This document shows positions 1,110-58,382 of a DNA stretch of 58,382 nucleotides, piece by piece (position 1 is the first letter of the stretch; the number at the start of each line of letters is the position of its first letter). Origin of the DNA: a virus (Duplodnaviria > Caudoviricetes); IMG/VR virus record IMGVR_UViG_3300036792_000539, positions 1 through 58,382 of that record. The stretch is one strand, 5' to 3'. The position numbers were made by a program, and so were the translations under genes. Under the pieces are notes generated by a model. It worked only from the letters and a program-made list of their open reading frames with translations. It was not told the origin of the DNA and did no database searches.

Positions 1110-1182
1110 GATTCCGTAGCTCAGTTGGTAGAGCAATACACTTTTAATGTATGGGTCCTGGGTTCGAGTCCCAGCGGGATCA
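1110..1182 (+). tRNA. tRNA-Lys (anticodon TTT); probable prophage integration site (attL)
   Basis: Acceptor stem GATTCCG/CGGGATC, D-arm AGCTCAGTTGGTAGAGC, anticodon arm ATACA-CTTTTAA-TGTAT, T-arm CTGGG-TTCGAGT-CCCAG; 73 nt; an integrase follows directly. Confidence 0.97.
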
Positions 1183-1184
1183 CG

Positions 1185-1222
1185 AACCAAAGCCGCGTCA
1201 GTCGTGGCTTTGGTTTTCTTTC
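1185..1222 (+). terminator. Rho-independent terminator after the tRNA
   Basis: Hairpin AACCAAAGCCGCG-tcagt-CGTGGCTTTGGTT followed by a T-rich tract. Confidence 0.75.
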
Positions 1223-22886: not shown

Positions 22887-24328
22887 ATAGTTATTTTTGT
22901 TCGGACCATGGGCGGAACGGCTGACGTCGCCACCGCGATCAGCTGGTGACCGCAATTGTATCCGCCGCGGTAAATGGGAAAATTATATTTATTCGTACCT
23001 GGAATCATCCCCTGCGGCAGGTTCGTCCGCTTATCAATTTTGCCTCCCTGTTCTTTGAACTCCGGGAAATCCCCTTCGATCACCGCCTCAAATTCCGATT
23101 TATGGACATATTTTTTTTGTATCAAGGCTTTGCAGAGTGGGCGGCTTGTCTTGATGAGGGAGCCGACATATTGAAACCACTCCAGCCCCAGATCGTCGGT
23201 CACCACTTGATTGTACTGCGCCGAGAACTGGTTTAATGCATCCGTGGTGATCTGTTGGGTATACCTGACCATGGCGCCGCCCATACCAGGCGTTCCAACT
23301 ATATAATCCCTCATCTGGCTCATCAGCTGTGGGAAGTCGCCGCCCGTCGTGATATTCGTGCGGAGGATATCCTGCACCCCGCTCATCACGCTTGCGTGCA
23401 GGCCGGCCGCGGTAAGGCCGTCGATCGTGGCTTCAATTGCTTGGGTTTTAACCACCTCCAGGACCTTCGGAGGCGTAAATTCGGCCGCCACCGTGCTGAA
23501 ATATTTGTTCTGCAGTTTGGCGACGGCCGCAAAGGCGTCGGCGAATTCCTCCACCTTTTTCACATAAGGATCGGAGATGATGACCTTCTCCAGATCCGCC
23601 CGCAGCTGCCCGATCGCCTTGACGTTTTTTACCGTCGCCGATAGGCGCCCATTCTTGAGGTCGAGCTCTTTTACCAACCGGACAATTTCATTATAGGCGT
23701 CCTGCTGAATCGCGGGGATCGCCTCCTGGAAGGAATCGACTGCCTTTTGGATCGTCGAAAGAAGCTCGTCTATAGTCTCCTGCCCCTTAGCCGAATTGAA
23801 AGAATCGGTTGATTTTTGGTCCTCGTTGGGTTGCGCGTCTTGCTTTTTAGCTTCACTATCAGCTTGCTGATGGGGTTGCTTTTCGGGCTTTGCGGGCTTT
23901 TCGGGTTGGTCCGGCTGTTTTTCCGCAGGAGTATCTTGTTTGGCGGCGTCTGGCTTCCGGGAACGATCATTCGGATATTTTTCATCATACTCCTTTAGAA
24001 CCTTGTTTCCAGCGTTTTCCGCGCGTTTAGACCCCTTTATCGTGCCAGCAACCTGATCGAGATCGCGCTGTAACCGATCTTTTACGCGCTGTTCGATATC
24101 TGGGTCGGGAATGCCCTTCTCTAGGTTTTCCCGGGCTATTTCAATGGAAGTCTGCAAAGAAGATAGGGCTTCCACTCTATTTTTTACCAGATACCACGCA
24201 TCTATCACCTCTATAACATCGCCGTCATTCTTATAGCCGTTAACAGAGCGGATCTGGTCTGCCTTTGCCTGCAGCTTATCCCTCAGCACGGAAAGTCGTG
24301 TAATGGTATCCTGTAAAATGTCGCTCAT
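22883..24328 (-). CDS. Minor head / head morphogenesis protein
   Basis: C-terminal WFQYVGSLIKTSRPLC...RGGYNCGH motif; follows the portal gene. Confidence 0.75.
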   Translation of the reverse strand: MSDILQDTITRLSVLRDKLQAKADQIRSVNGYKNDGDVIEVIDAWYLVKNRVEALSSLQTSIEIARENLEKGIPDPDIEQRVKDRLQRDLDQVAGTIKGSKRAENAGNKVLKEYDEKYPNDRSRKPDAAKQDTPAEKQPDQPEKPAKPEKQPHQQADSEAKKQDAQPNEDQKSTDSFNSAKGQETIDELLSTIQKAVDSFQEAIPAIQQDAYNEIVRLVKELDLKNGRLSATVKNVKAIGQLRADLEKVIISDPYVKKVEEFADAFAAVAKLQNKYFSTVAAEFTPPKVLEVVKTQAIEATIDGLTAAGLHASVMSGVQDILRTNITTGGDFPQLMSQMRDYIVGTPGMGGAMVRYTQQITTDALNQFSAQYNQVVTDDLGLEWFQYVGSLIKTSRPLCKALIQKKYVHKSEFEAVIEGDFPEFKEQGGKIDKRTNLPQGMIPGTNKYNFPIYRGGYNCGHQLIAVATSAVPPMVRTKITI

Positions 24329-26229
24329 TTATTAGCGTTTGTTGGATCCGTGTTGGGTGTCTCGTCAATTCCGGGCTTCTGCTTGGGGCCTGTATCATCC
24401 GCATTGCCGGTCTTTTGATCCTGGTTGCCGGAATTGTCGAGCTCATCCTGATTCGGATCGGTGACCGGTGCGCCTATGGCTTTTTGAGCCATCTTGAGCT
24501 TCAGCTGCGCCGCCTGATCATTGGCGTCGATGACCTCCTGGGCATATTTTTCGAGCACATCCCGCTGATCGCCATAATCCAGCGCGACGAACTTTTCATC
24601 CTCGTCTATGGCGCGACGGACAAACTGGTGAATATTGCAGCTCACGACGTAGTCTATCTTCGAGATGCCACCATTCTGCATCCGGGTCATTTTGTCATCA
24701 TCCGCGATCTCAGGGAAGGGATCGAGAAGTAGCGTCAACCGGACAAGGGCCTGTACGTCGGGCTCTCCGCTGAAGCGCTTGGTGGCGAATTCCACCTCCA
24801 TCTCCGTCACGATTGACGGATCCACCTTTCCGGTTTTGGCGTCTTGTATATCGCCAATCATGCTGTTGGACGACAGCAAATCAAACTTCAGGGGTACTGA
24901 AAAGGTCGGCACGAGGCCCTTCCGTTTCGATTCATTCGGGACAATGATCCGGTACCGGTAGTCTATTCCTATTTTTTCGATCTCCCGCATGATGCCGACA
25001 ATATCGCTGGCGACCGAATTGACGAAGATATTCAGCTCATCGCGGTCGACCTCCTTGGCCGTACCGGATTCGCTGAGCGGCGTATCTTGAAGGAACTCCA
25101 TGTTAATTGCGGAGAGGGCTTTATAGATGTGCGCGTCGACCCGGTCATCCTGGATTTTCACAATTTCTGTATCCTTGGATACATAGCCCATGGGCGGCGT
25201 GGGGACCTGCTGCTCCCCTAACTGGGCCGGCCGGATTACCTGGTGCGCGTAAGGCGAGGTATTAATCTTGCCTTGCCCTTTGCAGACCTCGCAGACAACC
25301 GTTCGGCCCTCCCGGCCCGGCAACTGCCCGAGGCCTTTACATTCCTGGCAGTCCTGAGTAGCATATACCCACATCGTGGAGTGGATATGTTGGACTACCT
25401 CCGCCTGCAGATCGGAATACTCCCGCACTGCCTCATTCAGGCCCGGAACAATGGATGCGATCCTGCTTTTCCACATGATGGTCTTGTCTAGGGCTTTCTT
25501 AAAAATGCCCTTTGCCCGGAAGGCTGGCATATAACCAAGGTTATGAACATAATTGACCACCAACTCTTTATCGCCCTTCGCGTTGACCTGATCATAACGC
25601 TGGATCACTTTGTCTGTGACGACGTAGTAGATATCGCCGTCGTTTTTGATGGTTGTTCCCACCTTATAGTTCGCCTTATCCGTAGAATAAAGGACGCAAA
25701 AAGACTCCTCTTCGTAGTCATAGACCAGGTTGCTGTTGAAGATCACCGGGAAAGGCCTGAGGTAAGTATTTTCCGGAAGATCCGTCTCCAGCGGCAGCAC
25801 CACGATAACTGCATTGGCGTCGATCAGGTAATTTTTCAGCCCGACATTGAACATCCAATCGGTGAGCGATTTGAAATAGGGGAATTGCGATTCAAAATAC
25901 ACCTCTGGCGTTTCCTCTTTCGCAATTGCCGGCGGCACATCCGTCTGGTCATATTTAATCCCCCAGTCCGAGGCTTTGCGGATTTTACCCAGGGAGGTTA
26001 GGATCTTGGAAAACGTGCCTTCCGTGATGGGTTCATAGATCTTTTGCCGATAGGCGTGGATCTCCATCGATTCGGCCGGCCGCCGTTCTTTGATCAGCTT
26101 ATGGGGAAACTCCCCGTCGGCATGGGTTCTGAGCGCATCATACAGCGCGACACTATCGTCATAGCACTTCCAGCGCTTGGGATTTGCCTTCTTCGTATAC
26201 TCCTTGAGTTGTGCGGGCGTGATCTCCAT
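24325..26229 (-). CDS. Putative portal protein with CxxCxGxG zinc-finger insertion
   Basis: 634 aa, helical; ESGTAKEVDR motif, acidic tail, upstream of the minor head gene; contains CQECKGLG...CEVCKGQG. Confidence 0.75.
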   Translation of the reverse strand: MEITPAQLKEYTKKANPKRWKCYDDSVALYDALRTHADGEFPHKLIKERRPAESMEIHAYRQKIYEPITEGTFSKILTSLGKIRKASDWGIKYDQTDVPPAIAKEETPEVYFESQFPYFKSLTDWMFNVGLKNYLIDANAVIVVLPLETDLPENTYLRPFPVIFNSNLVYDYEEESFCVLYSTDKANYKVGTTIKNDGDIYYVVTDKVIQRYDQVNAKGDKELVVNYVHNLGYMPAFRAKGIFKKALDKTIMWKSRIASIVPGLNEAVREYSDLQAEVVQHIHSTMWVYATQDCQECKGLGQLPGREGRTVVCEVCKGQGKINTSPYAHQVIRPAQLGEQQVPTPPMGYVSKDTEIVKIQDDRVDAHIYKALSAINMEFLQDTPLSESGTAKEVDRDELNIFVNSVASDIVGIMREIEKIGIDYRYRIIVPNESKRKGLVPTFSVPLKFDLLSSNSMIGDIQDAKTGKVDPSIVTEMEVEFATKRFSGEPDVQALVRLTLLLDPFPEIADDDKMTRMQNGGISKIDYVVSCNIHQFVRRAIDEDEKFVALDYGDQRDVLEKYAQEVIDANDQAAQLKLKMAQKAIGAPVTDPNQDELDNSGNQDQKTGNADDTGPKQKPGIDETPNTDPTNANK

Positions 26230-36723: not shown

Positions 36724-38091
36724 TTATTTTTTGTCCATCGGACGGAACCAATCCATGAAGTTGTTGCAGAAATACCGGAACGTATCGAGGGCATCGGATT
36801 GCTGCGCCGGATCATTCCGGTCCTCTTTGACGATCGTACCATCCGCGCGCTTTTTGACATTTTGCATATCGAAAATTAGCGGAGCCGCCTTTTCCTCATC
36901 GATGGTGACTTTATAAAAGGCTAGCACGCAGTTGACATGCGTCTGGTTCTTTTGTAGCCGCGGATTAGGCTTTACTTTTAGCTGGCCGGGCGACAGCCGG
37001 AGGTATTGCTGGATCAGCTTATAATGCGTCACCTGTTCGGCGAAGAGAGACGTTTCGTTATTGCCGGAATAGTCACCCGTAACGATGTACAAGCAACCGG
37101 GATAGAAGACCAGGACGTGGGCACATACCGCGTCGACCCCGGATTTGGGAATCTTGAAGACCTGCAGCACATAGATCCGGCCGCCGTAATGCTGGATCAC
37201 CGCACAGCACATGGGATTGCGGTTGAAGTCAAAGGACAGGTAAACCGGCTCTTTGGGGTTGAGCTGACAGTGGCCGACATGCTTGCTTCGATCGAACGCG
37301 AATGCCCAGGGAGCATCATTCGCCTGGTTGCCCCAAAGCCCCAGTGTATAGACTTGGTACCAATAATAATTAGTATTCTTGAGCGACTCGTGGAAAGCGA
37401 TACGTTGGGGCGAGACATAGGGATTATCGACATAGGTGACGTGCGTCGCCCGGTAGGTGACCTGGACCGGATTGCCTTCCTTATCCTTCATCGGTTGGCC
37501 GGTCTTGGGGTCATTGATTACCATTGCGCCGGTAAAATTCAGCTGTCCCTCGTATGCCGCAAAGAACATCTTATAGAGCCAGAATTCCTTATAATCCGCA
37601 GTCAAGGCTTCCGGGTTGAGACTGAGCCAGACCTTGATCTTGCCATAATCCGACCGAAGGCCGGTAATGATCGTAATAAAGCCTTCTTCCGTCGTTTGGT
37701 TGGCTTCTTCGACCCATACCTTCGATGGATTCGTAAAGGACCGGAGTTTGCCCGGATCATCCAAGCCGCGAGTAGCAAAAGTTCCTCCGCTCCGGCATTC
37801 AATCCCGAGCGGCGACGTTTTGAACCGGAACAAGGGATCGACGCCCCATTGTTCGGCGTTATCCTTGATCATCTGCCACTGAGCGTCCTTGATGGATTCG
37901 TGCGTCTGCTTGATCAGGATGCACCGGAAATAGTCAGCGCCCATGCAGTCCTCGGTCAGGATCTGGGCGATGAACTTCGACTTTCCGCTATCGCGGCCGC
38001 CCCATAGGATTTCGATATCGATGTCATTGGGCTCCAGTAAGTGATGGAAGCATTCTAAATAGACGTCTTTATGGATCTCGACCTCGATCAT
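36724..38091 (-). CDS. terL: Terminase large subunit (PBSX-like)
   Basis: Walker A GGRDSGKS, Walker B VWVEEA, SLNP, YTLGLWG, and nuclease motifs SFDFN and DALDTFRY. Confidence 0.95.
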   Translation of the reverse strand: MIEVEIHKDVYLECFHHLLEPNDIDIEILWGGRDSGKSKFIAQILTEDCMGADYFRCILIKQTHESIKDAQWQMIKDNAEQWGVDPLFRFKTSPLGIECRSGGTFATRGLDDPGKLRSFTNPSKVWVEEANQTTEEGFITIITGLRSDYGKIKVWLSLNPEALTADYKEFWLYKMFFAAYEGQLNFTGAMVINDPKTGQPMKDKEGNPVQVTYRATHVTYVDNPYVSPQRIAFHESLKNTNYYWYQVYTLGLWGNQANDAPWAFAFDRSKHVGHCQLNPKEPVYLSFDFNRNPMCCAVIQHYGGRIYVLQVFKIPKSGVDAVCAHVLVFYPGCLYIVTGDYSGNNETSLFAEQVTHYKLIQQYLRLSPGQLKVKPNPRLQKNQTHVNCVLAFYKVTIDEEKAAPLIFDMQNVKKRADGTIVKEDRNDPAQQSDALDTFRYFCNNFMDWFRPMDKK

Positions 38092-46718: not shown

Positions 46719-47474
46719 TTACTTGATCGGGATTGGATTGACGGTCATGTTCTCCAGGTTCACATAGCAGCCATGGTGGCGGATGACGCCTTTGCGAAAG
46801 AGCTTCCATAGCAGCCCTGCTCCAAACTGCGCCAGCGTACTATTGATAAAAAGGTCCTGCCGGTTGATCGCCTGCGCGAGACTGCAGCTGGGCCCTTCAT
46901 CGACTTCTTTTAGTTTACTCAGCTGCGGGAACTTCTGTAGCACGGTCTTTAAGCTACCGGTTGTTCGCTTTTCGCCCGTTGGCTGCGGAGCCGGCTGGAT
47001 CGTTCCAAGGATGGCCTGCCCGGTCTCCTGTGCGTTGCCCATATCGAGCCAGTAGTAGGTGCGCTCGGTTGCGACACCCTTCCCCCTGGGCTTCAGCTGT
47101 GCTCCGATCTTTATGCGCCCGGCAGCGGTATCGATGCAGGTGATGATAATATTGGCCCCCTCGCTTCCGTCGAAGGCCCGGCTGTTGGCTTCCCAATCCA
47201 GACCAAAACAGCGATTAATCCGGCTGACCAGGACGAGCGCCTTATTCAGCCCGAGATCCGGCTCATAAAAAAGCTGCCGGGCAAGATTTGCTGCGGAGAC
47301 CACATCTGCATCCCAGGCGCGGATGTGAAGCCCAGGATGACCGAGCGCCTTTAGCGTCTCGTGCAGGCGCACGAGTTGGTTCAGCATCTGAGACCCGGTA
47401 CCGCCGAGGCCGACCAGGTGCACGGTGACCTTGTGCGCCGGATCCAGAAGATACTTTTGCGTATAATGGATCAT
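46719..47474 (-). CDS. PRTRC system ThiF-family (E1-like) adenylyltransferase
   Basis: VGLGGTGS, DADVVSAANLARQ, ITCID, YWLDMGN, catalytic-Cys motif PSCSLAQA, and QDLFIN. Confidence 0.93.
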   Translation of the reverse strand: MIHYTQKYLLDPAHKVTVHLVGLGGTGSQMLNQLVRLHETLKALGHPGLHIRAWDADVVSAANLARQLFYEPDLGLNKALVLVSRINRCFGLDWEANSRAFDGSEGANIIITCIDTAAGRIKIGAQLKPRGKGVATERTYYWLDMGNAQETGQAILGTIQPAPQPTGEKRTTGSLKTVLQKFPQLSKLKEVDEGPSCSLAQAINRQDLFINSTLAQFGAGLLWKLFRKGVIRHHGCYVNLENMTVNPIPIK

Positions 47475-48193
47475 AAAATATCTTTCACGGTTTTTTTGCC
47501 GATGGGCTGTAGCTCGTCGAGCTCCGCCCAGGTCAGCCGCTTATTTTTGATAAGTTTGGGCCACAAAAGATTGATGTTGGTCCTGGTCGGGCTCTTCGAA
47601 CCTTGGAGGTGCGAGAATTCACTCAGCCAGAAGAGGTCCTCCCAATATTTCATTAGGGCGGCGTAGGTACGTTCTTTGGGTTTGGGAACCATCGCACTAC
47701 CCAGGCAGACGTCGCCCTCTTCGCCCACATTGTGGAAAGGCGCCCGCAGTAGCGCGGTCTTCTCATCGGGGCGCCGGTCATCCGGGAGCGCATAGACCGC
47801 CAGCTCCCTGCGAGAGGCTTTGTAAAGCATAGGGGGCACAAAGGCTTCGCCGTTTGCGATGTGAAGCGACTTCTCGAAGAACAGCCGGCGACGTTCCGCG
47901 GGCCGGTGCCAGATCATGGCATAGTGACCGCCGGGCAGCCCCTCGTAAAAGAGGATATTTGGCGGCAGAAGGCCTGAGATAGCAATCCGGTTCTGCCGAT
48001 CATCAAAAAAAACGTCAATCATCCCCTGGATCGTCTCCTGCTTAAGCGGCTTGGCTTCCAGGAGCGCACCCTGATCGTCAATTTCGTGGCTCTCGAGATA
48101 AGCATCGCCCCAATCGTCCATCATGGAGGTATATGCTATGATCGCCAGGCGCGGTTGAAATGTCTTGGTCAGTCGTTCGGTAAGCTGATTCAT
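47471..48193 (-). CDS. PRTRC system protein B (prokaryotic E2-like)
   Basis: LRAPFHNVGEEGDVCLG with E2-like Cys, and WEDLFWLSEFSH; start at MNQLTE (48193). Confidence 0.9.
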   Translation of the reverse strand: MNQLTERLTKTFQPRLAIIAYTSMMDDWGDAYLESHEIDDQGALLEAKPLKQETIQGMIDVFFDDRQNRIAISGLLPPNILFYEGLPGGHYAMIWHRPAERRRLFFEKSLHIANGEAFVPPMLYKASRRELAVYALPDDRRPDEKTALLRAPFHNVGEEGDVCLGSAMVPKPKERTYAALMKYWEDLFWLSEFSHLQGSKSPTRTNINLLWPKLIKNKRLTWAELDELQPIGKKTVKDIL

Positions 48194-49320
48194 CTTTTTC
48201 TCAAGTATTTGGTGACGAGCTCCTGGGCCCGGCTGGTGAATTGCTGCAGCTGCATCGGCCATCCCAGGAGCGACTCCAGCTTATCCAGGTCCGCCTTCGT
48301 CGTCTTTTTTTTGATTTGAAGCGTAACAAAGGGATGCTCTACCCCTTCCTGGGCATTGGCATCGAGAAAGGTTTCGGTTTCCTGGGTGATCAGATCGGAG
48401 GCATCGAATAAGATAGCAGATTGATCGAGCAGGTGCAGATAGCTGGCAAAATCGTCTCCGTAGTAACCGCGGTAGATGTAATCCGTCAGACTTCGCCCCT
48501 GCCGCATGATCTCGACCCCCTGGTGAATAAGATTGGCGATGGGCTGACCTGCTTTATAACAGCGCGCCCGGCTTTGCATTTGGGGGAGCGGAATTTTGGG
48601 CGCTTTGCGGATCAGGGCGATATATCTTTTCGGATCCCCCTTTTCGTATTCGGCAATCGCCTTTTTCACTTGCCTTTTATCTTCCGCATTTTCAAAATCA
48701 TTCACCAAGACGCTATCTTTCAGGTAGTCCAGCCCATAAGCCATAATGCCGTCGTCCCAGATGGGGATCTGGCAAGCCGAGGAGTATTGATTCAGGAAGG
48801 AGAGGAACAGGCCAAATAATCGCTTATTTTCCTTTTCCAGCTTCCGGAGCGCCGGGCCTACTTCAAAGGCCGACCAGGACCAGTCGTAGGGGCATTCCTG
48901 AAAGATCGTTACCACATAATCCTTCCCCTCCCGGTCAATGTTGAACTCAAACCCCCTGGGTATTTGATCACTCAGGCGACGCAGGACGTAGGCTGCCGCA
49001 AAGGGCATGGTAATCCCCTTTTCCAACGGATCAAAATCAACCGGCTTTCCGGTGCGGATCGTCTCCAGCCGTTTTGCGGCAGACAGCAGGATCTGATAAA
49101 GCCCTTTGGGATCATCGAGCGGATGGCCGAGCGCTTTAAAGAAGACCTCCGTACCCGGCTTCTCCTTGAATCTTACGGTATAAAGGGTAGGTCTTGCGAC
49201 GGCAGCATCCGGCGTTCGTTCTCCTGATCGCGGGCGTGAAGCCGGAGATCTCTTCTTTCCTCGCGCAGTACGCGACCGAGCTGATGATGGAGATCGTCTG
49301 GTCTTAACTTTTTTCGGCAT
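48190..49320 (-). CDS. PRTRC system protein F-like
   Basis: Lies between the C and B genes in the usual E-C-F-B order; called mainly on position. Confidence 0.6.
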   Translation of the reverse strand: MPKKVKTRRSPSSARSRTARGKKRSPASRPRSGERTPDAAVARPTLYTVRFKEKPGTEVFFKALGHPLDDPKGLYQILLSAAKRLETIRTGKPVDFDPLEKGITMPFAAAYVLRRLSDQIPRGFEFNIDREGKDYVVTIFQECPYDWSWSAFEVGPALRKLEKENKRLFGLFLSFLNQYSSACQIPIWDDGIMAYGLDYLKDSVLVNDFENAEDKRQVKKAIAEYEKGDPKRYIALIRKAPKIPLPQMQSRARCYKAGQPIANLIHQGVEIMRQGRSLTDYIYRGYYGDDFASYLHLLDQSAILFDASDLITQETETFLDANAQEGVEHPFVTLQIKKKTTKADLDKLESLLGWPMQLQQFTSRAQELVTKYLRKR

Positions 49321-49348: not shown

Positions 49349-49570
49349 TTATCCTTTGGTTCCAACGGTCGTCTTGAACTCATAGACCGCCTTATCTCCC
49401 TCGATCTTCGGTCCCGCGATCGTGGAGGTCGTCAGCTCTTCATGCTGGCCGGCATAGAATTGCATCACCTCTTCGGGGGAGAGATTAGGGTTAAAGTCGG
49501 AGAGCTCGACGGTCTTGCCGTCTTTTTTGAAATGGAATATGCGGGTGAGGCCTGTTACTTGTAATGCCAT
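49349..49570 (-). CDS. PRTRC system protein C (ubiquitin-like, 73 aa)
   Basis: MALQVTGLTRIFHF...LSDFNP.LSPEEVMQFYA..HEELTT...GP...YEFKTTVGTKG with a free C-terminal Gly. Confidence 0.9.
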   Translation of the reverse strand: MALQVTGLTRIFHFKKDGKTVELSDFNPNLSPEEVMQFYAGQHEELTTSTIAGPKIEGDKAVYEFKTTVGTKG

Positions 49571-49625
49571 ATGCTCGATTTTAATTGGTTTCCGTTTCAG
49601 GTGATTGGGTTTCAAGAGAAGTAGG

Positions 49626-50090
49626 CTACGCTTCCGGTAAGAGATCCGGCGCGGGCTGGGAGAACATATCACCGACCAGGAGAGCAGGCGCGGTTTTACT
49701 CTTCTCTTCTTTAACCCGCTTCTCCCGTTTGGGCGTCTTGTCCTTTTGAGCAATCTTTTTCTCCTTTGCTGCTTTAGCGGCCTTAGAGGACCTTGCATAT
49801 GCCGGCGCCTTCTTCTCCTTCGACGCTTCCTTTTCCTTGGTTTCGGCGTCCCGCTTCACCTGGTCGAGGTTGCTGAGCAGGCCTTTGATCGCATTCATCT
49901 GGCCGGTTACCTGGTCAAAGAAGCCTTCATCGAGCTCCGCAGCCGTACCGGTCAGCACCAAGGGTTTTACTTTTGAGGCGTTCTTCGCCTGGGGCTCTAC
50001 CGACATGGTAATCGTCCCGTCTTTGCCTTTGATCCGGAGCACCAGATCCATTCCCTGCCCCAGCGATTCGAGTTGTTGGAAAAAGTTCAT
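49626..50090 (-). CDS. PRTRC system protein E
   Basis: MNFFQQL...PLVLTGTAAELDEGFF followed by a Lys-rich tail. Confidence 0.88.
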   Translation of the reverse strand: MNFFQQLESLGQGMDLVLRIKGKDGTITMSVEPQAKNASKVKPLVLTGTAAELDEGFFDQVTGQMNAIKGLLSNLDQVKRDAETKEKEASKEKKAPAYARSSKAAKAAKEKKIAQKDKTPKREKRVKEEKSKTAPALLVGDMFSQPAPDLLPEA

Positions 50091-50097
50091 ATTGTTG

Positions 50098-51186
50098 TCA
50101 TTGTAGCATTAGTGGCATAATAAGTCCGAGATAATTGGCATCTTCCTCCGAGGTGATCACCACGCCGCGGTTGGGCCCGTCGATGTGAAGGAAAAGATCA
50201 TCGAAGGGCAGCTGCCCAAGTACCGTTCTCAGCAGCACCGGCGCCAGGGCGATCTGCAATGTCTTTCCCGCGTATTCACCGGGCATCGTAACGACAGAAT
50301 CGCGCCCCCGCTCTTCGCTGGCGGAGGCCAGCTTGAATCGCCCGTTCCGGCTTTCCAGAGGTTCAAATTGCAGCAGGATCTGTTTGTCATCCGTCAGCAG
50401 GCATTTATTAAGGGAGGTCATGAGCTGAAGCCGGCCGACTGTAAGATTTGCCTCGCTGTTGGGAATCACCACCTTCCAGTCCGGATACTTATCGCTGGAC
50501 CGGGTGCTGATGACAGTAATATGGTCCGCCTGAAACGCAACATGATGAGAATGCCAGCGGAGCGTTGTTTTCTCCAGGCCTTCCAGAGCAAGGCCGATCT
50601 TAGGGGAAACAAGGATGGTCTCCGTTGTCGGCACCCCCATCGGGAACCGGTATTTGAACAGGGCATGGGCATTCGTAGAGACGATCGTGATGGCATCAGG
50701 GGTTAGTTCAAGGCAGGCCTTGGTCATGGCGGGTCGCAAGTCATCCTTGGATGCGGTGGCCATGGACCGGAGAAGCCAGGTCATGAATTCCTCGTTCAGT
50801 TCCAGACTATTCTTTTTGGGGATGTCCGGAAGCTTTGGAAAATTGCCCACCTCCTCGAGTCCGGCAAGGTGGAAGACCTCGTCGGCGGCGGAAAACCGCG
50901 CCTTCTTGCCGTTCAGCTCGATCACCAGTGGCTGGTTTCCCAATAGGGGGACGAGCTTTGAGAGGAACTCGAAGGGAATAAGCATCTCAAACTCCTGGGC
51001 GCACTCACAGGAACAAGTATAGCTGATGGTCAGCTCCAGGTCCGTCGATATCAGCTCCAGCTCGTTCTTCCGCGCCCTGCAATAAAGATTTAATAACACA
51101 TCGAGCGCAGGTTTTTTGAGGACGGCCTGGCTTAGATGTCGGAGCGCCGGTTTGAGGCTCTCCGTCGAAATGATGACTTTTTTCAT
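50098..51186 (-). CDS. dnaN: DNA polymerase III beta sliding clamp homolog (phage-encoded)
   Basis: 362 aa; STDLELTI, SKDDLRPAMT, VSTNAHAL, KYPDWKVVIP and GLIMPLM motifs. Confidence 0.88.
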   Translation of the reverse strand: MKKVIISTESLKPALRHLSQAVLKKPALDVLLNLYCRARKNELELISTDLELTISYTCSCECAQEFEMLIPFEFLSKLVPLLGNQPLVIELNGKKARFSAADEVFHLAGLEEVGNFPKLPDIPKKNSLELNEEFMTWLLRSMATASKDDLRPAMTKACLELTPDAITIVSTNAHALFKYRFPMGVPTTETILVSPKIGLALEGLEKTTLRWHSHHVAFQADHITVISTRSSDKYPDWKVVIPNSEANLTVGRLQLMTSLNKCLLTDDKQILLQFEPLESRNGRFKLASASEERGRDSVVTMPGEYAGKTLQIALAPVLLRTVLGQLPFDDLFLHIDGPNRGVVITSEEDANYLGLIMPLMLQ

Positions 51187-51437: not shown

Positions 51438-51794
51438 TCAGAACAGCGATCGCTGGTTTTCTTCTTTGGGCGGATCCGGGCGGCGCGCGCGGTTGGTTTT
51501 GGTAGGGCTGCTTTTCGGGCTTTGCGTGGCGACAGCCGGCGGGGCAGCAACCACCGGTTGTCTATGTTCTTCGGCGGTTGGCGGAGGCGTCGACTGGGCC
51601 AGCCATTCCGCCGGTATATCAAGGATATCGCTGGCCAGCGCCGGGTATTTAAATCCGCTCTGACCCTTTACAATAAAGACATGCCCGTGAACGGAAATGA
51701 TCTCCACTTCCTCGCCGGCGGCGCCGTATATTCTTTTGGGCGGGAGCGCGCTTCGGATATCGTGCTTAAGGGTAGGCATGTCAGGTGAATTCAT
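51438..51794 (-). CDS. Hypothetical protein with C-terminal clamp-binding-like motif QRSLF
   Basis: Small beta domain, Pro-rich linker, and terminal NQRSLF resembling QL[S/D]LF. Confidence 0.6.
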   Translation of the reverse strand: MNSPDMPTLKHDIRSALPPKRIYGAAGEEVEIISVHGHVFIVKGQSGFKYPALASDILDIPAEWLAQSTPPPTAEEHRQPVVAAPPAVATQSPKSSPTKTNRARRPDPPKEENQRSLF

Positions 51795-52071
51795 AGCGTT
51801 CGTTCTCTTTTACGATCGTTGTCTGGAAGGGGAAGGCTTCCTTTGGCACCCGTTCGATCATCTCCCGCAGCGTCGCTGATCCGGTAAAAATGACGTGCTG
51901 CGTCTCCCCGATCCGGATCTGCAAGTCCAGGCGATCGCCGTCGAACTTGGATTTCTCGATCTTGAAGGCTTCGACCGTGATTGACCGGTTGAGGATCCTG
52001 TCGATCTTGATTTTGTCGCCCACGAATCCTTTCTGGGCCGGCTTGATCCCGAATTCCTTGAAATTTCTCAT
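51781..52071 (-). CDS. Small protein nested in the RT 3' end; candidate DGR accessory factor
   Basis: MRNFKEFGIK...FVGDKIKI...IFTGSATL...FPFQTTI, 96 aa; I recall similar ORFs following RTs in Bacteroidota DGRs (not checked). Confidence 0.7.
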   Translation of the reverse strand: MRNFKEFGIKPAQKGFVGDKIKIDRILNRSITVEAFKIEKSKFDGDRLDLQIRIGETQHVIFTGSATLREMIERVPKEAFPFQTTIVKENERYEFT

Positions 52072-53017
52072 GCAGTAAGGTTTTGAGTAGGTGGTTGCAG
52101 TCGGCATGGGCAGCCCAACCGTAATAGGATGCGACCGATTGAAGGGTCAGTCGACGCGCAACCATGCGCGCAAAATTCTTCTTGATGGATTTGCGAAGAA
52201 GCGTATGGGTAAGAAAGAACCGGTATCCGACAAAGTCGATGCCCCGGGCGGCGACGGGAAAGACCTGGTAATTGGCTTTCAGCTGCAGGCGCAAGTGGAC
52301 TTCGAGGTACTGGCGGATCTCGCCCAGCAACCGGTGCAGCGACGGCTTATTCGGGGCCAGGAAAACCATGTCATCCAGGTAGCGGAAATAATGCCGGACC
52401 AGCTTTTCTTCTTTCAGCCAGTGGTCAAAATAGGTCAGGTAAAAATTGGCGAAGTACTGCGACAGGTAGTTGCCGATCGGAAGACCCGGAGCGCTTTCGA
52501 TGATCTCGTCGAGGAGCCACAATAGATCAGGATCCTTGAATTTGCGGCGAAGCAGCCCTTTGAGGACGTTATGGCTGACCGAGGGGTAGAACTTGCGGAT
52601 ATCGAGCTTAAGACAATAGCGGGTCGCTTCTGGGTCGCGGAGGGCCCTTTTAACAGCCCTGGCGGCGCCGTGGATCCCGCGGCCGCGGATGCAGCTATAG
52701 CTATCGGCCGTATAGACGGCCCGGAAAATGGGCTCGAGGATGTTCAGGACCGCATGATGCAGAATGCGGTCAGGGAAATACGGCAGCCGGAAGATCTCGC
52801 GCTCTTTGGGCTCGTAGATCTTAAAGGTAATATAGGGGGATGTTTGGTAGGTCTTCGTCAGAAGCATTTGCTGAAGGCTAAGGAGGTTGGACTCAGCGCT
52901 CACCAGGTGCGCCTTCACGCCCGGCTGATGACTTTTGCCCTTGCGGGCCTTTTGGTCGGCCAGCCGGAGGTTATCCAGGCTGCAGATCTTCTCGTATAAC
53001 TGACCGATGCGCTTCAT
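51791..53017 (-). CDS. DGR-type reverse transcriptase
   Basis: EPKER, PDRILHHA, LKLDIRKFYPS, GLPIGNYLSQ (DGR-type IGxxxSQ), RYLDD and GIDFVGY; no maturase or endonuclease domain. Confidence 0.96.
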   Translation of the reverse strand: MKRIGQLYEKICSLDNLRLADQKARKGKSHQPGVKAHLVSAESNLLSLQQMLLTKTYQTSPYITFKIYEPKEREIFRLPYFPDRILHHAVLNILEPIFRAVYTADSYSCIRGRGIHGAARAVKRALRDPEATRYCLKLDIRKFYPSVSHNVLKGLLRRKFKDPDLLWLLDEIIESAPGLPIGNYLSQYFANFYLTYFDHWLKEEKLVRHYFRYLDDMVFLAPNKPSLHRLLGEIRQYLEVHLRLQLKANYQVFPVAARGIDFVGYRFFLTHTLLRKSIKKNFARMVARRLTLQSVASYYGWAAHADCNHLLKTLLHEKFQGIRDQAGPERIRGRQNQDRQDPQPVNHGRSLQDREIQVRRRSPGLADPDRGDAARHFYRISDAAGDDRTGAKGSLPLPDNDRKRERTL

Positions 53018-53230
53018 CCTTTGCTGTTGGGGGCCCGCGTTCGCACATACAGCGCTACCGGCGGACCCGGTTTAAGAGACATTTTTTGCCATGCGGGCAA
53101 GGCTTGCGAGAACGATGATCGTTGCAAATGCTGGGAGCTGCCGGTCGTGTTCGTGATGTCGTAGTTCGAATCGTTGAACCGGAAACTGGAACCACCCGCT
53201 CCGCCCTCGCGCCGCCTGTATCAGGACCTG
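53018..53230 (-). ncRNA. DGR template RNA region (TR plus structured spacer)
   Basis: 213-bp non-coding gap holding the TR, a TTGCC-cgcat-GGCAA hairpin (53086-53100) and a GGGTCCGC/GCGGGCCC stem before the RT start. Confidence 0.8.
53129..53194 (-). repeat. DGR template repeat (TR)
   Basis: Minus-strand tggttccAgtttccggttcAAcgAttcgAActAcgAcAtcAcgAAcAcgAccggcAgctcccAgcA: 66 bp with 17 A and three AAC codons. Confidence 0.96.
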
Positions 53231-53713
53231 CTAAAGCAGGAACCGGTTATAGTGATCCAAGAACTGGGTTCCGACATAGTCGCTGATTCGCTTGGAGCAA
53301 AGGCGGAGCCGGGAGCCGCCGGTCGTGAGCGTGAGGGCGTAGTCCGAAACGAGGAACCGGAAACCGGAACCAGTGTGGACAAAATAGGGCGCCCATTTTT
53401 GCTGATTGTTATTCGGCGACCAGTCCCATTCCCATCCGGGAGGAAGGAACGCTTCTATCACTACCTTGAGCTGCTTATAGGCGATCTCATCAGACGTTCC
53501 GCTGTTCAGCTCCATATCCTGTGGATCATCGCCGGTGATCCGGCACGCCGCCTCAAAAGAGGGCACGAGCGGGATAATGTAATCCTCCCATTCCTTGATA
53601 TTGGTGTAAAAGGGAGAGCCGCCGAATAAATTATTTAGTGTAATTAAACCACCTTCGTCAGCCTCCTTATAGGCTTGCAAGACTTTTTCTTTTGGAATTT
53701 GAATCATATCCAT
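53231..53713 (-). CDS. DGR target protein 1 (160 aa, no signal peptide)
   Basis: Contains VR1, encoding GSGFRFLVSDYALTLTTGGSRL near the C-terminus. Confidence 0.92.
   Translation of the reverse strand: MDMIQIPKEKVLQAYKEADEGGLITLNNLFGGSPFYTNIKEWEDYIIPLVPSFEAACRITGDDPQDMELNSGTSDEIAYKQLKVVIEAFLPPGWEWDWSPNNNQQKWAPYFVHTGSGFRFLVSDYALTLTTGGSRLRLCSKRISDYVGTQFLDHYNRFLL
53307..53372 (-). repeat. DGR variable repeat VR1
   Basis: Ungapped 66-bp alignment to the TR with 12 mismatches, all at TR adenines. Confidence 0.96.
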
Positions 53714-53732: not shown

Positions 53733-54404
53733 TCATGCGGCGCCCATCAGGCTTCCGAACAGCGTCGCATATTTAAAAGCCAGATCCTGGTATTGCGCTT
53801 TGCCTTCCTGGTAGTTGGCATCGCCTCGCCGGATCGGAACCTGGAAGACCCGGCAATTTTTTTTGCTGATCCCAATCAGCATATCGCGATCGACCCCTTC
53901 GATATCCATGTACCAGGCGCGTTGGCGGAAATATTCGAAGTAGTGGCAAGCCTCTTCGAATTGCTTCTGCGTCTCGGCCGTCGTGCTTTTGATGTCGCCG
54001 GAGATCTGGAGCTTCGGCATGGCGAAGAGGTCCCATTTGCACCGGACATCCAGCAGGAACCGGACGCCAGCATATTCGACTGGAAAGCCTCTTCGGATGC
54101 TGACCTTTTGGAACTCCGAATTTTGGGCCAGCAGCTTGCAAAAGGGTACCCGGTAAAAAGCCTTCTTCATTTCCTCGGCGAGTTCGAAATCTCCTCGGGT
54201 GTATTGATTTCCCGCACAGGTATACCGGAAGTAGTTCACCTTATGCGGCTCGGTGATCATGCAATCGATCAGGGTACCGAACCGGTAAGCGGCCTCCTTA
54301 TCGTAGCGAAGGATCTCCGGCTCCCAATAGCGCTTTAGATCGGAGAGATCGCTATTGCTCACCTCCGGCCGGCCGTAGTAGGGATCATTGACTTCCTCGA
54401 TCAT
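53733..54404 (-). CDS. PD-(D/E)XK exonuclease (DUF3799 / RecE-ExoVIII-like)
   Basis: YYGRPEVSNSDL, FGTLID, RCKWD, GDIKST and YFRQRAWY; near the recT-like gene. Confidence 0.85.
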   Translation of the reverse strand: MIEEVNDPYYGRPEVSNSDLSDLKRYWEPEILRYDKEAAYRFGTLIDCMITEPHKVNYFRYTCAGNQYTRGDFELAEEMKKAFYRVPFCKLLAQNSEFQKVSIRRGFPVEYAGVRFLLDVRCKWDLFAMPKLQISGDIKSTTAETQKQFEEACHYFEYFRQRAWYMDIEGVDRDMLIGISKKNCRVFQVPIRRGDANYQEGKAQYQDLAFKYATLFGSLMGAA

Positions 54405-54631
54405 AGAAGCGGTGATTTAGAAATTCCTGTCCGTTGTTCCATTTCGATCAAGCGTTCCAGGCGATCACGCGGTCCAACGGATGTTTCATTGATATTCCTG
54501 GCCAGCTTCAGGGCGTCCTCAACGAACCAGGTGATCTCCTCCCGGACGCGGCGCCGGGTCAATTCCTCCGGTACTGTTGTTTGCCGCGCATGAGTAATGC
54601 AGCGCTCAACGACATTGTCTATCCGGCTCAT
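54401..54631 (-). CDS. Hypothetical protein
   Basis: 76-aa ORF with overlapping start/stop codons on both sides. Confidence 0.6.
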   Translation of the reverse strand: MSRIDNVVERCITHARQTTVPEELTRRRVREEITWFVEDALKLARNINETSVGPRDRLERLIEMEQRTGISKSPLL

Positions 54632-56154
54632 GCCTCCTCCTTGTTTTTTTCTTTCCGGTTCACAGCCTTGACATCCAGTTCATAGCGCAGATATTCGCTC
54701 TGGATCCGTTCGCCGGATTTCTTGTCCGTATCTTTGGCCGCCGTCTCGCAGAACGTCTTCATCGACTCCAGCTTTACGGATGCCATTTTATCAACCGCCA
54801 TCTTGCAGCCCTTGTGCTGGTACCAAAATTGGAAGATCTGAACCCATCCTGCCGGATGCAGTACGGTGATCTCATATCCTTTCCGGGATTCGGGCCCATC
54901 GTCTACCAGGCTGGCCGCAGCCTGATCGAAGAGCGTGCCGGCGATCAGCGAAGAGGTTGTCAGCTCCGCGGTCTGTCGGTTCTTTTCCTCGGCCGCTTCG
55001 CGCTCCCGCTGGAGTTTCTCCTTTTCCTGGCGTTCGCGTTCCAGTTTTTCATTTTCCAGCCGGTCATTCTCGGCTTGCAAGGCGGCGAGACGTTCGTTTT
55101 CCCGCTGCTGGTCTTCCTCGCGCTTCTTCCGATTGATTTCAGCCTCCTGGCGCGCTTTGGCTGCCTCGGCCTCGAGTCGCTTCCTTTCCTGCGCATTGGC
55201 CCGGGCAATGTTCGCCTGACGCTGTTCTTCGGCTTTCCTGGCCGCCTCTTCTTCCTGTTGGCGTTTCAGTTGCGCCTGGTAGCGCGCCTTTTCGGCTTCG
55301 CGCGCCAGTCGGGCGAGCTCCGCCGCTTCCTCGAATTGCTGCCGCAGCGCCGGCAGCCGCTCGATGAGCGACTGTTTGAGCTCCTCCATCTCCTGGTCGT
55401 GCCGGGCGATCCAGCTATCAAAATCATAGTCTTCATGTGCTTTAATGCGGGCCGTGTTAATCTGCTCTTCGGCTAATTTGGGAAAGACAGGTAGTTCGTA
55501 GCGCAGCACCTCGCCCAATTTGGTGCGCACGAAAGCGGTCGACGCCTGTTTCAGGTTCTCTGCACTTTGGTCAAATCCCTCCGCAGCGATCGCATTGAAG
55601 GAATCCATCCATTTCTGCCGTTTATTGAAAAGATAGCCCGTCAGCAGGTCGCCGATCTTTTGGGTGACCCAGCCGATCAGCCGGGCCTTCTCCTTTTCGA
55701 TCTCCGCTTTTCGTTCCGCTTCGATCCGCTGGCGCTCCGCCTCCTGGATGCAAAATTTCGCCCAATCGTTGCGAAGGCCCTGGATCTGGGTGATATCGTT
55801 CGGAGCCTTGGAGGCGATATCCAGTTCTGCCTCCAGGCCGGTGAATTGCCGGGAAAGCGCGGTGGCCAGCTGAGTGAAAGGTTCGCGCCGTTCTTTCATC
55901 GTCTTCAGGGTCGTGGAAACTTTGATCAAAAAACCTTTTGCTTGCTCATCGAGCTCGGCCGTCATCTTACCCCCGGCCGCGGCGACCTTCTGCAGGATCC
56001 GCTGCGCGCCGGCCTTCGCACCCATGTTGGACTTTTTATTGGCCTTAAGGATATTGGGGGCATCCTGGAAGATGTTCAGGCTTTCGCGGAACATCACCAC
56101 ATCCTTATCCTCCTGTTCCGGCGAGACGGGTGCCGGCAATTGATTCGTATCCAT
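54628..56154 (-). CDS. Long coiled-coil phage protein in the recombination module
   Basis: 508 aa, Glu/Arg/Lys/Ala-rich, between the recT-like and exonuclease genes. Confidence 0.75.
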   Translation of the reverse strand: MDTNQLPAPVSPEQEDKDVVMFRESLNIFQDAPNILKANKKSNMGAKAGAQRILQKVAAAGGKMTAELDEQAKGFLIKVSTTLKTMKERREPFTQLATALSRQFTGLEAELDIASKAPNDITQIQGLRNDWAKFCIQEAERQRIEAERKAEIEKEKARLIGWVTQKIGDLLTGYLFNKRQKWMDSFNAIAAEGFDQSAENLKQASTAFVRTKLGEVLRYELPVFPKLAEEQINTARIKAHEDYDFDSWIARHDQEMEELKQSLIERLPALRQQFEEAAELARLAREAEKARYQAQLKRQQEEEAARKAEEQRQANIARANAQERKRLEAEAAKARQEAEINRKKREEDQQRENERLAALQAENDRLENEKLERERQEKEKLQREREAAEEKNRQTAELTTSSLIAGTLFDQAAASLVDDGPESRKGYEITVLHPAGWVQIFQFWYQHKGCKMAVDKMASVKLESMKTFCETAAKDTDKKSGERIQSEYLRYELDVKAVNRKEKNKEEA

Positions 56155-56177: not shown

Positions 56178-57101
56178 TTAATAGGGTTGATCCGGATCGT
56201 CATCGAAGCTGACCGTGCGACCATTCAGCTTCGATTCGTGAGCGGAGTGAGAAGGAACCACAGCAGCCGGTTGTTGCGCGGTAGGCGAAGCGTTCTCCGG
56301 ACTGAATGGTTTGGTAGAGTTTGCAATTACCTCCGGACGCACCGGCGCGCCAGAAGGCGACTCGTCGTCGACATCCATCTCGACGTCCGTGAACTGCTCC
56401 ACGTTGGCCGGCGTGGTACCAATAGCCCAATGCTTCGCCTTACAGGCGTGAAGGGTGATCTTGGTCTTGAGGAATTCCGGTTGAGGTTGCTGTGAGCCGT
56501 TGTGGTTCCAATTGGGGCCGTCCTTCATCTCCGATTTCTGCCGCCAGGATTCCCAATCGCTCTTGCGGAAGGTGGCGAATAGATCCCTGCCATTCTCATC
56601 CAGCTCAAAGCGGATGTAGCCTGCGATGATGATATCGGTCTGGAAGTTCTCCTGGTGGCGCAGGACCCGACCTTTCTCCACCTGGTAGATATCGCCCTGA
56701 TAAACCAGGACGGGCTTGTCGGCACTGAGGATCTGGCCGGAGCGCTTCAGCTTGCGGATATAGGCGCCGGCTTGCCGCTGCAGAACGGCCTTGCCGCCGC
56801 GGGGAACAATATAGACCTCGTCATCGGCGGGATCGAGGCTGTATCCATTGACGGCCGCGGTCGCGAACACGGCATAAAGGCTGAAGGGATCGCAGTTGCG
56901 CAGCTTCTCGCTGGCGGAAAGTATCTGCTTGAAATGGATGACATTTCTATGGTACATCATATCGCCCACCTTTTCGCGGTGGCAGGCGTTGTAGTTACGG
57001 ATGTATCGGTCACGCACGAAGTCGAGCTCACCGATCGCCGCAGGAGGCGTATTGGCAAGGACCTGCGTGATGCTGTTTTGCGAATTTGTTACGTTTGACA
57101 T
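56178..57101 (-). CDS. RecT-like single-strand annealing protein
   Basis: CDPFSLYAVF..AAVNGYSLDP...VYIVPRG...LVYQGDIY...IIAGY...FLKTKITLHACK. Confidence 0.8.
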   Translation of the reverse strand: MSNVTNSQNSITQVLANTPPAAIGELDFVRDRYIRNYNACHREKVGDMMYHRNVIHFKQILSASEKLRNCDPFSLYAVFATAAVNGYSLDPADDEVYIVPRGGKAVLQRQAGAYIRKLKRSGQILSADKPVLVYQGDIYQVEKGRVLRHQENFQTDIIIAGYIRFELDENGRDLFATFRKSDWESWRQKSEMKDGPNWNHNGSQQPQPEFLKTKITLHACKAKHWAIGTTPANVEQFTDVEMDVDDESPSGAPVRPEVIANSTKPFSPENASPTAQQPAAVVPSHSAHESKLNGRTVSFDDDPDQPY

Positions 57102-58079: not shown

Positions 58080-58382
58080 TCAATTTTCAATTTCCTCAGT
58101 CGATGCCGCTTTTTTTATAGCGGGCAGCTGGCCACCGCAGAAGTCAGCCCAAAGGGCAATGCACTCGATGGCGAAAAAGTCCTGATCATCCACAGAGAAA
58201 GTGCAAAGCCGGGAGCCGCCGGACGAGTACGTGAGGCCGTAGCGCGAATCGCCGAACCGGAAACCGGGGTCATTCATCAAAAACCAGCTTCCATATTTCT
58301 CTTCGCTGCGGTCATTCCAGTCGGCGACCCGCCGGCTGACCAGTGCCTTTCGGATTACTTCCAGCTGGAAGGAGACAACTGG
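58080..58382 (-). CDS. DGR target protein 2 (5' end beyond the window), paralog of target 1
   Basis: Frame is open to the window edge: ...FQLEVIRKALVSRRVADWNDRSEEKYGSWFLMNDPGFRFGDSRYGLTYSSGGSRLC..., aligning with QLKVVIEAFL...DWSPNNNQQKWAPYF of target 1. Confidence 0.88.
   Translation of the reverse strand, partial: PVVSFQLEVIRKALVSRRVADWNDRSEEKYGSWFLMNDPGFRFGDSRYGLTYSSGGSRLCTFSVDDQDFFAIECIALWADFCGGQLPAIKKAASTEEIEN
58208..58267 (-). repeat. DGR variable repeat VR2 (remote)
   Basis: Ungapped 60-bp alignment to TR 53130-53189 with 12 mismatches, all at TR adenines. Confidence 0.95.

Follow-up and report, generated by a model that had tools for sequence, protein, structure and literature searches.

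The diversity-generating retroelement (DGR) analysed here is directed at three small, soluble and paralogous proteins that are encoded among the recombination and replication genes of a temperate Bacteroidota phage, and not at the tail fibre. Phage DGRs are usually seen as host-range devices that act on tail proteins; the targeting of early soluble proteins in this case suggests that phages may also apply targeted hypermutation beyond host recognition. The window, that is the whole stretch of DNA that was analysed (58,382 nt), corresponds to positions 172595-230976 of C16, minus strand, within a 5.5-Mb genome. Positions given with the prefix w continue the window numbering past the window end (58,382).

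The template repeat (TR) core is a non-coding stretch of 66 nt (53129..53194, minus strand) between the genes for target 1 (T1) and the reverse transcriptase (RT), the latter of which begins 110 nt further downstream. Three variable repeats (VRs) correspond to it, namely VR1 (53307..53372, minus strand) in T1, VR2 (58207..58267, minus strand) in target 2 (T2) and VR3 (w58686-58746, minus strand) in target 3 (T3), the last of which is approximately 300 nt past the window end. Counted on the alignment, the TR/VR mismatches on TR adenines amount to 12/12 for VR1, 13/13 for VR2 and 10/10 for VR3. Because adenines make up only around one quarter of the TR, this bias, 35/35 in sum, is far beyond chance. 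When a stretch of 141 nt around the TR was searched by BLAST in the complete genome of 5.5 Mb, it returned the TR itself and the three VRs (E <= 4.5e-10) and no fourth copy of the repeat, the next-best match having an E value of 0.17. The fibre genes and all of the genome outside the three targets are therefore without a VR, which bears out what a first-pass annotation of this DNA had stated for the fibre genes. The locus thus combines the features by which a DGR is recognized: a DGR-type RT beside the repeats, TR/VR differences at adenines only, and VRs near the C terminus of intact targets, where they span approximately codons 115-136 in proteins of 159-162 aa.

The mutable zone of the TR contains 13 adenines, and four further ones are at sites where all VRs share one fixed base. 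The mutable adenines fall in ten T1 codons (121, 122 and 124-131), which read AAC (three times), GAT, GAC, TAC, ATC, ACG (twice) and ACC in the TR; by our own arithmetic on 13 adenines in 10 codons, the sequence space per target is approximately 5-5.5 x 10^7 peptides. At the four further adenines the same substitution is found in VR1-VR3, and three of the four are located in a G+C-rich run at the VR 3' end. We infer that this run may be the counterpart of the IMH/IMH* difference in BPP-1. Selection for Gly/Gly/Arg/Leu would also explain the fixed substitutions.

The RT gene (51791..53017, minus strand) matches RVT_1 (E 2.2e-14) and phrog_1423 (E 2.5e-123), and its product is 57-69% identical to all but one of the RTs found in 62 related viral loci. 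Among GenBank phages, the best matches are to RTs annotated in crAss-like phages (52-54% identity); in one of these phages, cr52_1, the RT adjoins an Mtd-like tail protein. The homologous part of the window RT stops near 52075, and the frame, which is without the usual stop, continues for 94 extra codons over the following gene, orf107. The RTs of relatives are mostly 315-335 aa long, and those of three loci (L002, L004 and L068) have similar but shorter run-on tails. The orf107 gene (51781..52071, minus strand; approximately 96 aa) comes directly after the RT in another frame, belongs to phrog_19665 and has a predicted OB-fold, with the order b1-b2-b3-helix-b4-b5 in its model (pLDDT 93.2). 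We also considered that RT and orf107 are one frameshifted gene and rejected this, since relatives have two distinct genes here that overlap slightly. Avd is a common, though not universal, DGR accessory. An Avd-type protein was not detected among the 62 window ORFs (E <= 0.01), and the cassette maps of 80 related loci hold no conserved small helical gene. The orf107 product is a candidate for a DGR accessory that stands in for Avd.

The run-on of 94 codons, in a frame that lacks the stop found in most relatives, could also be taken as a sign that the DGR is a relic which is inactive in the prophage, with the three VRs being a frozen record that has no present role. In addition, the one public run with the locus, a soil metagenome that is probably the source of this DNA, gives a single contig with no alternative VR; no RNA run with the locus was found. 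Contigs, however, hide minor VR variants, and the RTs of the three loci named above have a comparable run-on. Furthermore, the ORFs of T1, T2 and T3 have remained intact, as have the RT core and orf107, the TR and VRs differ at adenines only, and the att repeats described below are still exact over 47 nt. We therefore consider it very improbable that the element is a mere relic.

T1 (53231..53713, minus strand) is an intact ORF that encodes an acidic, soluble protein of 160 aa matching phrog_11581 (E 3.5e-13). T2 (w58080..58556, minus strand; 159 aa) has its C-terminal 100 codons (58080..58382) inside the window and matches the same family with an E value of 8.4e-5, and T3 (w58583..59071, minus strand; 162 aa) is outside the window and matches it with an E value of 6.7e-11. 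The three proteins are paralogous, with T1 being 26% identical to T2 and 31% to T3. Where two targets had been reported in the first-pass annotation, both are indeed real paralogs, but the count was one short, as T3 is located just outside the window. None of the three has a TM-like segment, the maximum Kyte-Doolittle mean over 19 residues being 0.72 for T1, 1.39 for T2 and 1.36 for T3 against a threshold of approximately 1.6, and signal peptides are absent from T1-T3. Their pI values range from 4.8 to 5.6, with that of T1 alone being 4.76. The earlier description of T1, as a protein of 160 aa at these positions with no TM segment, is thus correct, and a DGR with small soluble paralogous targets, as it had been proposed, is confirmed by the RT, the TR, the 35 adenine mismatches and the identity of T1 to its two paralogs.

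An AlphaFold2 model of T1 built with 124 sequences (pLDDT 91.4, pTM 0.81) has six N-terminal helices, a hairpin (106-114/117-126), a loop and two C-terminal helices, and VR1 makes up the second hairpin strand and the loop after it. In residues 100-160, the mean column entropy is 2.89 bits at the TR-adenine codons and 1.94 bits in the other columns. Along the VR, positions 121, 122, 124, 126, 127, 129 and 131 have high entropy and positions 125, 128 and 130 low entropy, an alternation of variable and conserved positions that is as expected if one face is exposed. A Foldseek search of the PDB with the T1 model gave no match at E <= 0.001, C-type lectin (CLec) folds included, and no solved CLec structure was matched in a VIA fold search with the same model. 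Five matches at E <= 0.001 were obtained in BFVD, and all of these are uncharacterised phage proteins, one of them from a crAss-like virus. At the sequence level, a profile search of the PDB with the target family gave nothing below E 0.09, and the CLec-type Pfam families (FGE-sulfatase, Lcl_C/DUF1566) did not match T1-T3 even at E <= 5. The minimal C-type lectin-like fold that had been anticipated for the targets is therefore not supported by the confident T1 model, which consists mostly of helices with a single hairpin and found no counterpart among solved structures. On the basis of this model, we cannot call the T1 scaffold a recognizable C-type lectin fold; a derived CLec is compatible with the fold searches.

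The DGR is part of a prophage. A 47-nt att core (1141..1187, plus strand) forms the 3' part of a tRNA-Lys (1110-1183) and is repeated exactly at w61938-61984. The two copies enclose a prophage of approximately 60.8 kb that holds the DGR, and the 60,810-nt contig of the public run spans roughly the same interval. The carrier is a temperate Bacteroidota phage integrated at tRNA-Lys of a soil bacterium. Next to this att site, where an integrase would be expected, is a 419-aa ORF (1293-2552, plus strand), for which no Pfam (E <= 0.01) or PHROG (E <= 0.001) match was found.

The prophage genes are nearly all on the minus strand. A possible repressor (w60601..61155, plus strand), which is named by position alone and has no family match, is followed leftward on the minus strand by an ORF of 80 aa that occupies the Cro position, then by three small ORFs, T3, T2 and an ORF of 61 aa. 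Left of the last of these are RecT (56178..57101, minus strand), a charged coiled-coil protein of 508 aa with no family match (54628..56154, minus strand) and a PDDEXK recombination exonuclease (53733..54404, minus strand), and then T1, the TR, the RT and orf107. The coiled-coil gene is conserved alongside RecT and Exo in two related loci (L060 and L062). The early region continues to the left of orf107 with the DnaN clamp (50098..51186, minus strand) and a PRTRC-type set on the minus strand, made up of PRTRC_E (49626..50090), Prok_Ub (49349..49798), E2 (47471..48262) and ThiF (46719..47474), and then DnaD-like and HerA-like genes. ThiF/E2/Ub genes also adjoin the DGR cassette in L015, L037 and L068. 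The terminase (36724..38091) and the portal (24325..26229) come thereafter, and at the far left are the lysis genes, a methyltransferase and a tail-fibre candidate (12646..15438, minus strand; 929 aa; PHROG tail-fibre matches, E 1.4e-7). The targets are 38-45 kb from this candidate and among recombination/replication genes, which is in agreement with the placement and the 38-43 kb given for them earlier. The tail-fibre candidate, which is without a VR, has a C-terminal GDSL/SGNH lipase-esterase domain (residues 752-913) and may, judging from its sequence, be a receptor-modifying enzyme.

We propose the following explanation. Adenine-specific mutagenic retrohoming can rewrite 10 codons in each of three paralogs, which are the sole DGR targets in the genome. 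T3 and T2 are near the start of an operon that diverges from the possible repressor, and T1 is between the recombination exonuclease and the RT. The targets would be made early after induction or infection. They would act inside the cell and bind host or rival-phage molecules in phage-host conflict, with counter-defence, host take-over or a function as adaptors for host replication/recombination proteins being possible roles, and the DGR would let the phage re-aim these proteins as hosts change. That T1-T3 are hypervariable cytoplasmic binders is plausible from where their genes are located, from analogy and from the absence of signal peptides and TM segments. We hold the explanation as a whole, in which the DGR acts on three early paralogs that serve as intracellular hypervariable binders in phage-host conflict, to be moderately probable.

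The same gene order bears on a second explanation, according to which the targets are made in lysogens, where they would, as variable proteins, sense or block superinfecting phages to the benefit of host and prophage together (by superinfection exclusion or abortive infection) and would not serve the phage's own lytic growth. Exclusion genes of lambdoid phages are often found beside the immunity region, and T2 and T3 adjoin the putative immunity region with its possible repressor. Furthermore, the typeable phages that carry the family look temperate or transposable, 11 of the loci having an integrase and 19 having MuA. T2 and T3 are, however, on the lytic strand, which diverges from the repressor-like gene, and come after the Cro-position ORF and its three small neighbours, and T1 is deep in the recombination/replication operon. 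A function in lysogens thus seems quite unlikely to us, and we continue with the explanation of early, intracellular binders.

The cassette recurs in other viruses. With an alignment of 13 family sequences as the query, 80 related viral loci were collected, and ORF clustering places family ORFs in all of them (80/80, 153 ORFs in total). A tblastn search detected the RT in 62 and orf107 in 50 of these loci, and the cassette order is always target(s), RT and orf107 on one strand. All loci with the RT on the plus strand (60/60) have a TR just upstream of the RT as well as adenine-biased VRs, and 1715 of the 1766 TR/VR mismatches in these 60 loci are at TR adenines. The TRs are 42-89 nt long and are accompanied by 127 VRs; most loci (51) have two of these, 8 have three and a single locus has one. 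Called family ORFs contain 117 of the 127 VRs, and the remaining ten are at locus edges or in places where our crude ORF caller picked another frame; in L022, L024 and L025, a tblastn match to the family is found at the VRs outside called ORFs. No VR was detected in structural genes within +-10 kb of the 60 dedicated-cassette loci.

Neighbour maps were drawn for the 80 loci, with names given to 40 of the commonest neighbour clusters. Genes for MuA/MuB transposition (19 loci), primase, SbcC-like/hydrolase, SSB/NinG and replication initiators are the neighbours of the cassette on the same strand. In Mu-like phages the cassette comes after the MuA/MuB/ATPase genes, and in non-Mu loci it is preceded by primase, by an SbcC-like nuclease and a hydrolase, or by SSB/NinG. 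The genes that come next are those for methyltransferases or replication initiators, or else the first of the head genes. In none of the 80 maps, in which many neighbours are without a name, is the cassette located between two named head/tail genes.

The family to which T1-T3 belong, phrog_11581, has no named function and is made up of 'FEDAC ... GSRLC' proteins. A profile search with T1-T3 returned 2041 cluster representatives (E <= 1e-3), of which 666 reach 1e-10 and 11 reach 1e-30. The members are mostly viral and chiefly 120-165 aa long, some being two-domain tandems. Their relatives in Pfam, PHROGs, the PDB and BFVD are all uncharacterised, and the neighbours in the ESM Atlas are 'hypothetical protein' clusters that are mainly viral. 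No Pfam family fits: among the matches listed (25 of 43 families, E <= 1), none is found on more than two of 124 members, and a CLec-type family is absent from these listed matches to the 124 members. A tblastn search of GenBank phages with T1 gave no match, whereas other family members do match phages. One form of the family, seen in 22 member sequences, has an Lcl_C (DUF1566-like) lectin-type domain fused to the family domain, with the Lcl_C part scoring 34.3 bits, slightly below the cut-off of 34.9. In a partial record assigned to candidate division KSB1 (P0170), a response-regulator receiver and a PAS domain are joined to the family domain. We dropped this REC-PAS fusion as a sign of a cytoplasmic function, as it is one partial sequence with the junction inside the family N-terminal helix and may be a chimera of the assembly as well as a genuine fusion.

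Approximately 18 of the 80 loci are without an RT within 10 kb, and we considered whether the family also exists without a DGR. This was rejected, as an RT is found elsewhere in 3/3 near-complete records and the family members of all three (3/3) carry VRs of the distant RT's TR. The mismatches are on TR adenines in 8/8 and 13/13 cases in the first of these records and in 19/19 in the second; for the third the count is 12/19, with an alignment that extends beyond the repeat. In two incomplete records without a nearby RT, no distant RT or VR was found. The target family is thus a DGR target in every checkable genome, either as the sole target or as a remote second one. A jumbo-sized genome, a viral record of 380 kb with terminal repeats (L076/L092), has a family member approximately 40 kb from the RT whose VR matches the distant TR, with 19/19 mismatches at adenines.

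Family members are also present in the Bacteroides phages BT-TP2, Versailles and LoVEphage, the first two with the host named in the record and the third from a virome catalogue. The BT-TP2 member is an unannotated gene across the record ends, directly after a Cro-like HTH gene. That of Versailles (WAK79127.1; ON453897, L085:5992-6573), which the depositors labelled 'tail protein', is located between NinB and a replisome organiser, and that of LoVEphage (QVQ57199.1) is among methyltransferases, radical-SAM genes and RtcB. With the 124-sequence family profile, hhalign recovered the former at 99.4% (E 4.7e-22) and the latter at 99.5% (E 3.7e-23). In all three phages (3/3), one remote TR serves both the VR of the family member and a large target beside the RT. 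Both proteins therefore sample the same peptide space, so that in some phages the family does not stand apart from a large second target. A joint peptide space could mean one ligand class, for example a cell-surface structure.

This sharing of a TR has to be weighed against our explanation, since it would fit targets that function outside the cytoplasm on a ligand like that of a tail protein, either as virion-attached adaptors or decorations or as soluble proteins that are freed at lysis and bind the cell surface, and that are simply encoded away from the structural genes. Such a function is also suggested by the VR end of the family, 'GSRL(C)', which resembles the VR ends 'IGFRLC' and 'IGSRLA' of the RT-adjacent targets, by the Lcl_C-type fusion in 22 member sequences and by the 'tail protein' label of the Versailles record. 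The shared TR, the fusion and the label count against the intracellular reading, as does the Lifelines NEXT 2026 preprint, in which no DGR was found to be aimed at a known anti-defence protein (10.64898/2026.03.05.709809), and the absence of a signal peptide holds for virion proteins too. However, the Versailles label may reflect nothing but the VR in common with the RT-adjacent target, and an hhalign comparison of the family with the RT-adjacent target aligned 25 VR columns only, with a probability of 4.5%. Furthermore, the 80 maps show the family on the early strand, within regions devoted to early functions, replication or transposition, and never between named structural genes, and no VR is found in a structural gene either here, in the whole genome, or within +-10 kb in the 60 loci. 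Activity outside the cytoplasm is hence unlikely in our view, although with a real chance of being correct, and we retain intracellular binding as the preferred explanation.

The LoVEphage RT is split over three frames, and by this and its neighbours LoVEphage matches the description of Quimbyvirus by Benler et al. (2021), a comparison that was made by description only. The Quimbyvirus RT is reported to lie in three frames, and the same report describes an additional DGR target that is non-structural and neighbours methyltransferases and a tRNA ligase (PMC8008677). According to Dahlman et al. (2025), four prophage species have a second, distal VR near counter-defence genes, and LoVEphage species were induced from isolates (PMC12629997). 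In both reports, the authors interpret distal DGR targets near counter-defence genes as phage-host conflict (PMC8008677; PMC12629997). The idea of distal non-structural DGR targets in phages, which had been presumed to be new in the first-pass annotation, has thus already appeared in print in these two reports. According to Roux et al. (2021), annotated VR regions are all CLec and other VR domains are expected to be CLec variants (PMC8144416); their catalogue may well hold the target family among its unannotated viral targets. Within the literature covered, which is incomplete, we found no description of the target family, of a dedicated small-target cassette or of an OB-fold DGR accessory.

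What appears to be new is, first, that the printed distal DGR targets, as judged by sequence comparison, belong to one large, mostly viral family. Secondly, sequence searches point to a widespread DGR cassette that is devoted to this family alone, usually with two or three copies, and that occurs in Mu-like and integrase-bearing temperate phages alike. Thirdly, an OB-fold gene, as predicted from its model, is in the usual place of Avd and could represent a DGR accessory of a new type. Finally, the predicted target scaffold is unrecognizable as a C-type lectin fold. [quoted passage not shown] More speculatively, the family could represent a second, non-CLec DGR scaffold that gives the phage an antibody-like cytoplasmic repertoire, in which the hairpin is re-aimed at host defence or replication proteins and Avd has been swapped for an OB-fold RT partner; we put this forward tentatively, as a possibility that is itself rather doubtful.

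Comparison with known systems can be made at several levels. T7 Ocr and Mu Gam are small, acidic, soluble early anti-defence proteins that are encoded at or near the start of an early operon. By analogy, T1-T3 are like them in size, acidity, solubility and early location, and no sequence or fold similarity of T1-T3 to either protein was found. We know of no early anti-defence protein of this kind that is diversified by a DGR. As in the CLec variable proteins Mtd, TvpA and TaqVP, a conserved scaffold is combined here with a short DGR-written segment that ends in G-(F/S)-R-L, and conserved and variable positions alternate. Unlike in these proteins, the predicted T1 scaffold consists of eight helices and one hairpin and has no CLec Pfam match. 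The DGR of BPP-1 (Mtd, Avd, TR and Brt) shares with the one described here the adenine-specific transfer, a VR near the target C terminus, a TR upstream of the RT and a GC-rich VR 3' stretch that differs from the TR. In contrast to BPP-1, there are three targets here, none of which is a tail fibre or has a recognizable CLec, and no Avd was found among the 62 ORFs; the VR is 66 nt long, compared with 134 bp as given for BPP-1 in PMC6199706.

The closest counterparts are the distal targets of Quimbyvirus and LoVEphage-like phages, which belong to the same family and, as here, are small, carry a VR and are encoded outside the structural module. The two reports describe the distal target as a C-type lectin domain protein (PMC8008677; PMC12629997), an assignment that the T1 model does not reproduce. 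Moreover, LoVEphage-type phages have the small protein as a second target at a distance from the RT, whereas the DGR described here and those of the 60 loci serve this family alone, with one to three copies beside the TR and RT. The TR is approximately 112-118 nt long in the former and shorter, 63-89 nt, in the dedicated cassettes, which are further set apart from the LoVEphage-type arrangement by the predicted OB-fold gene that follows the RT.
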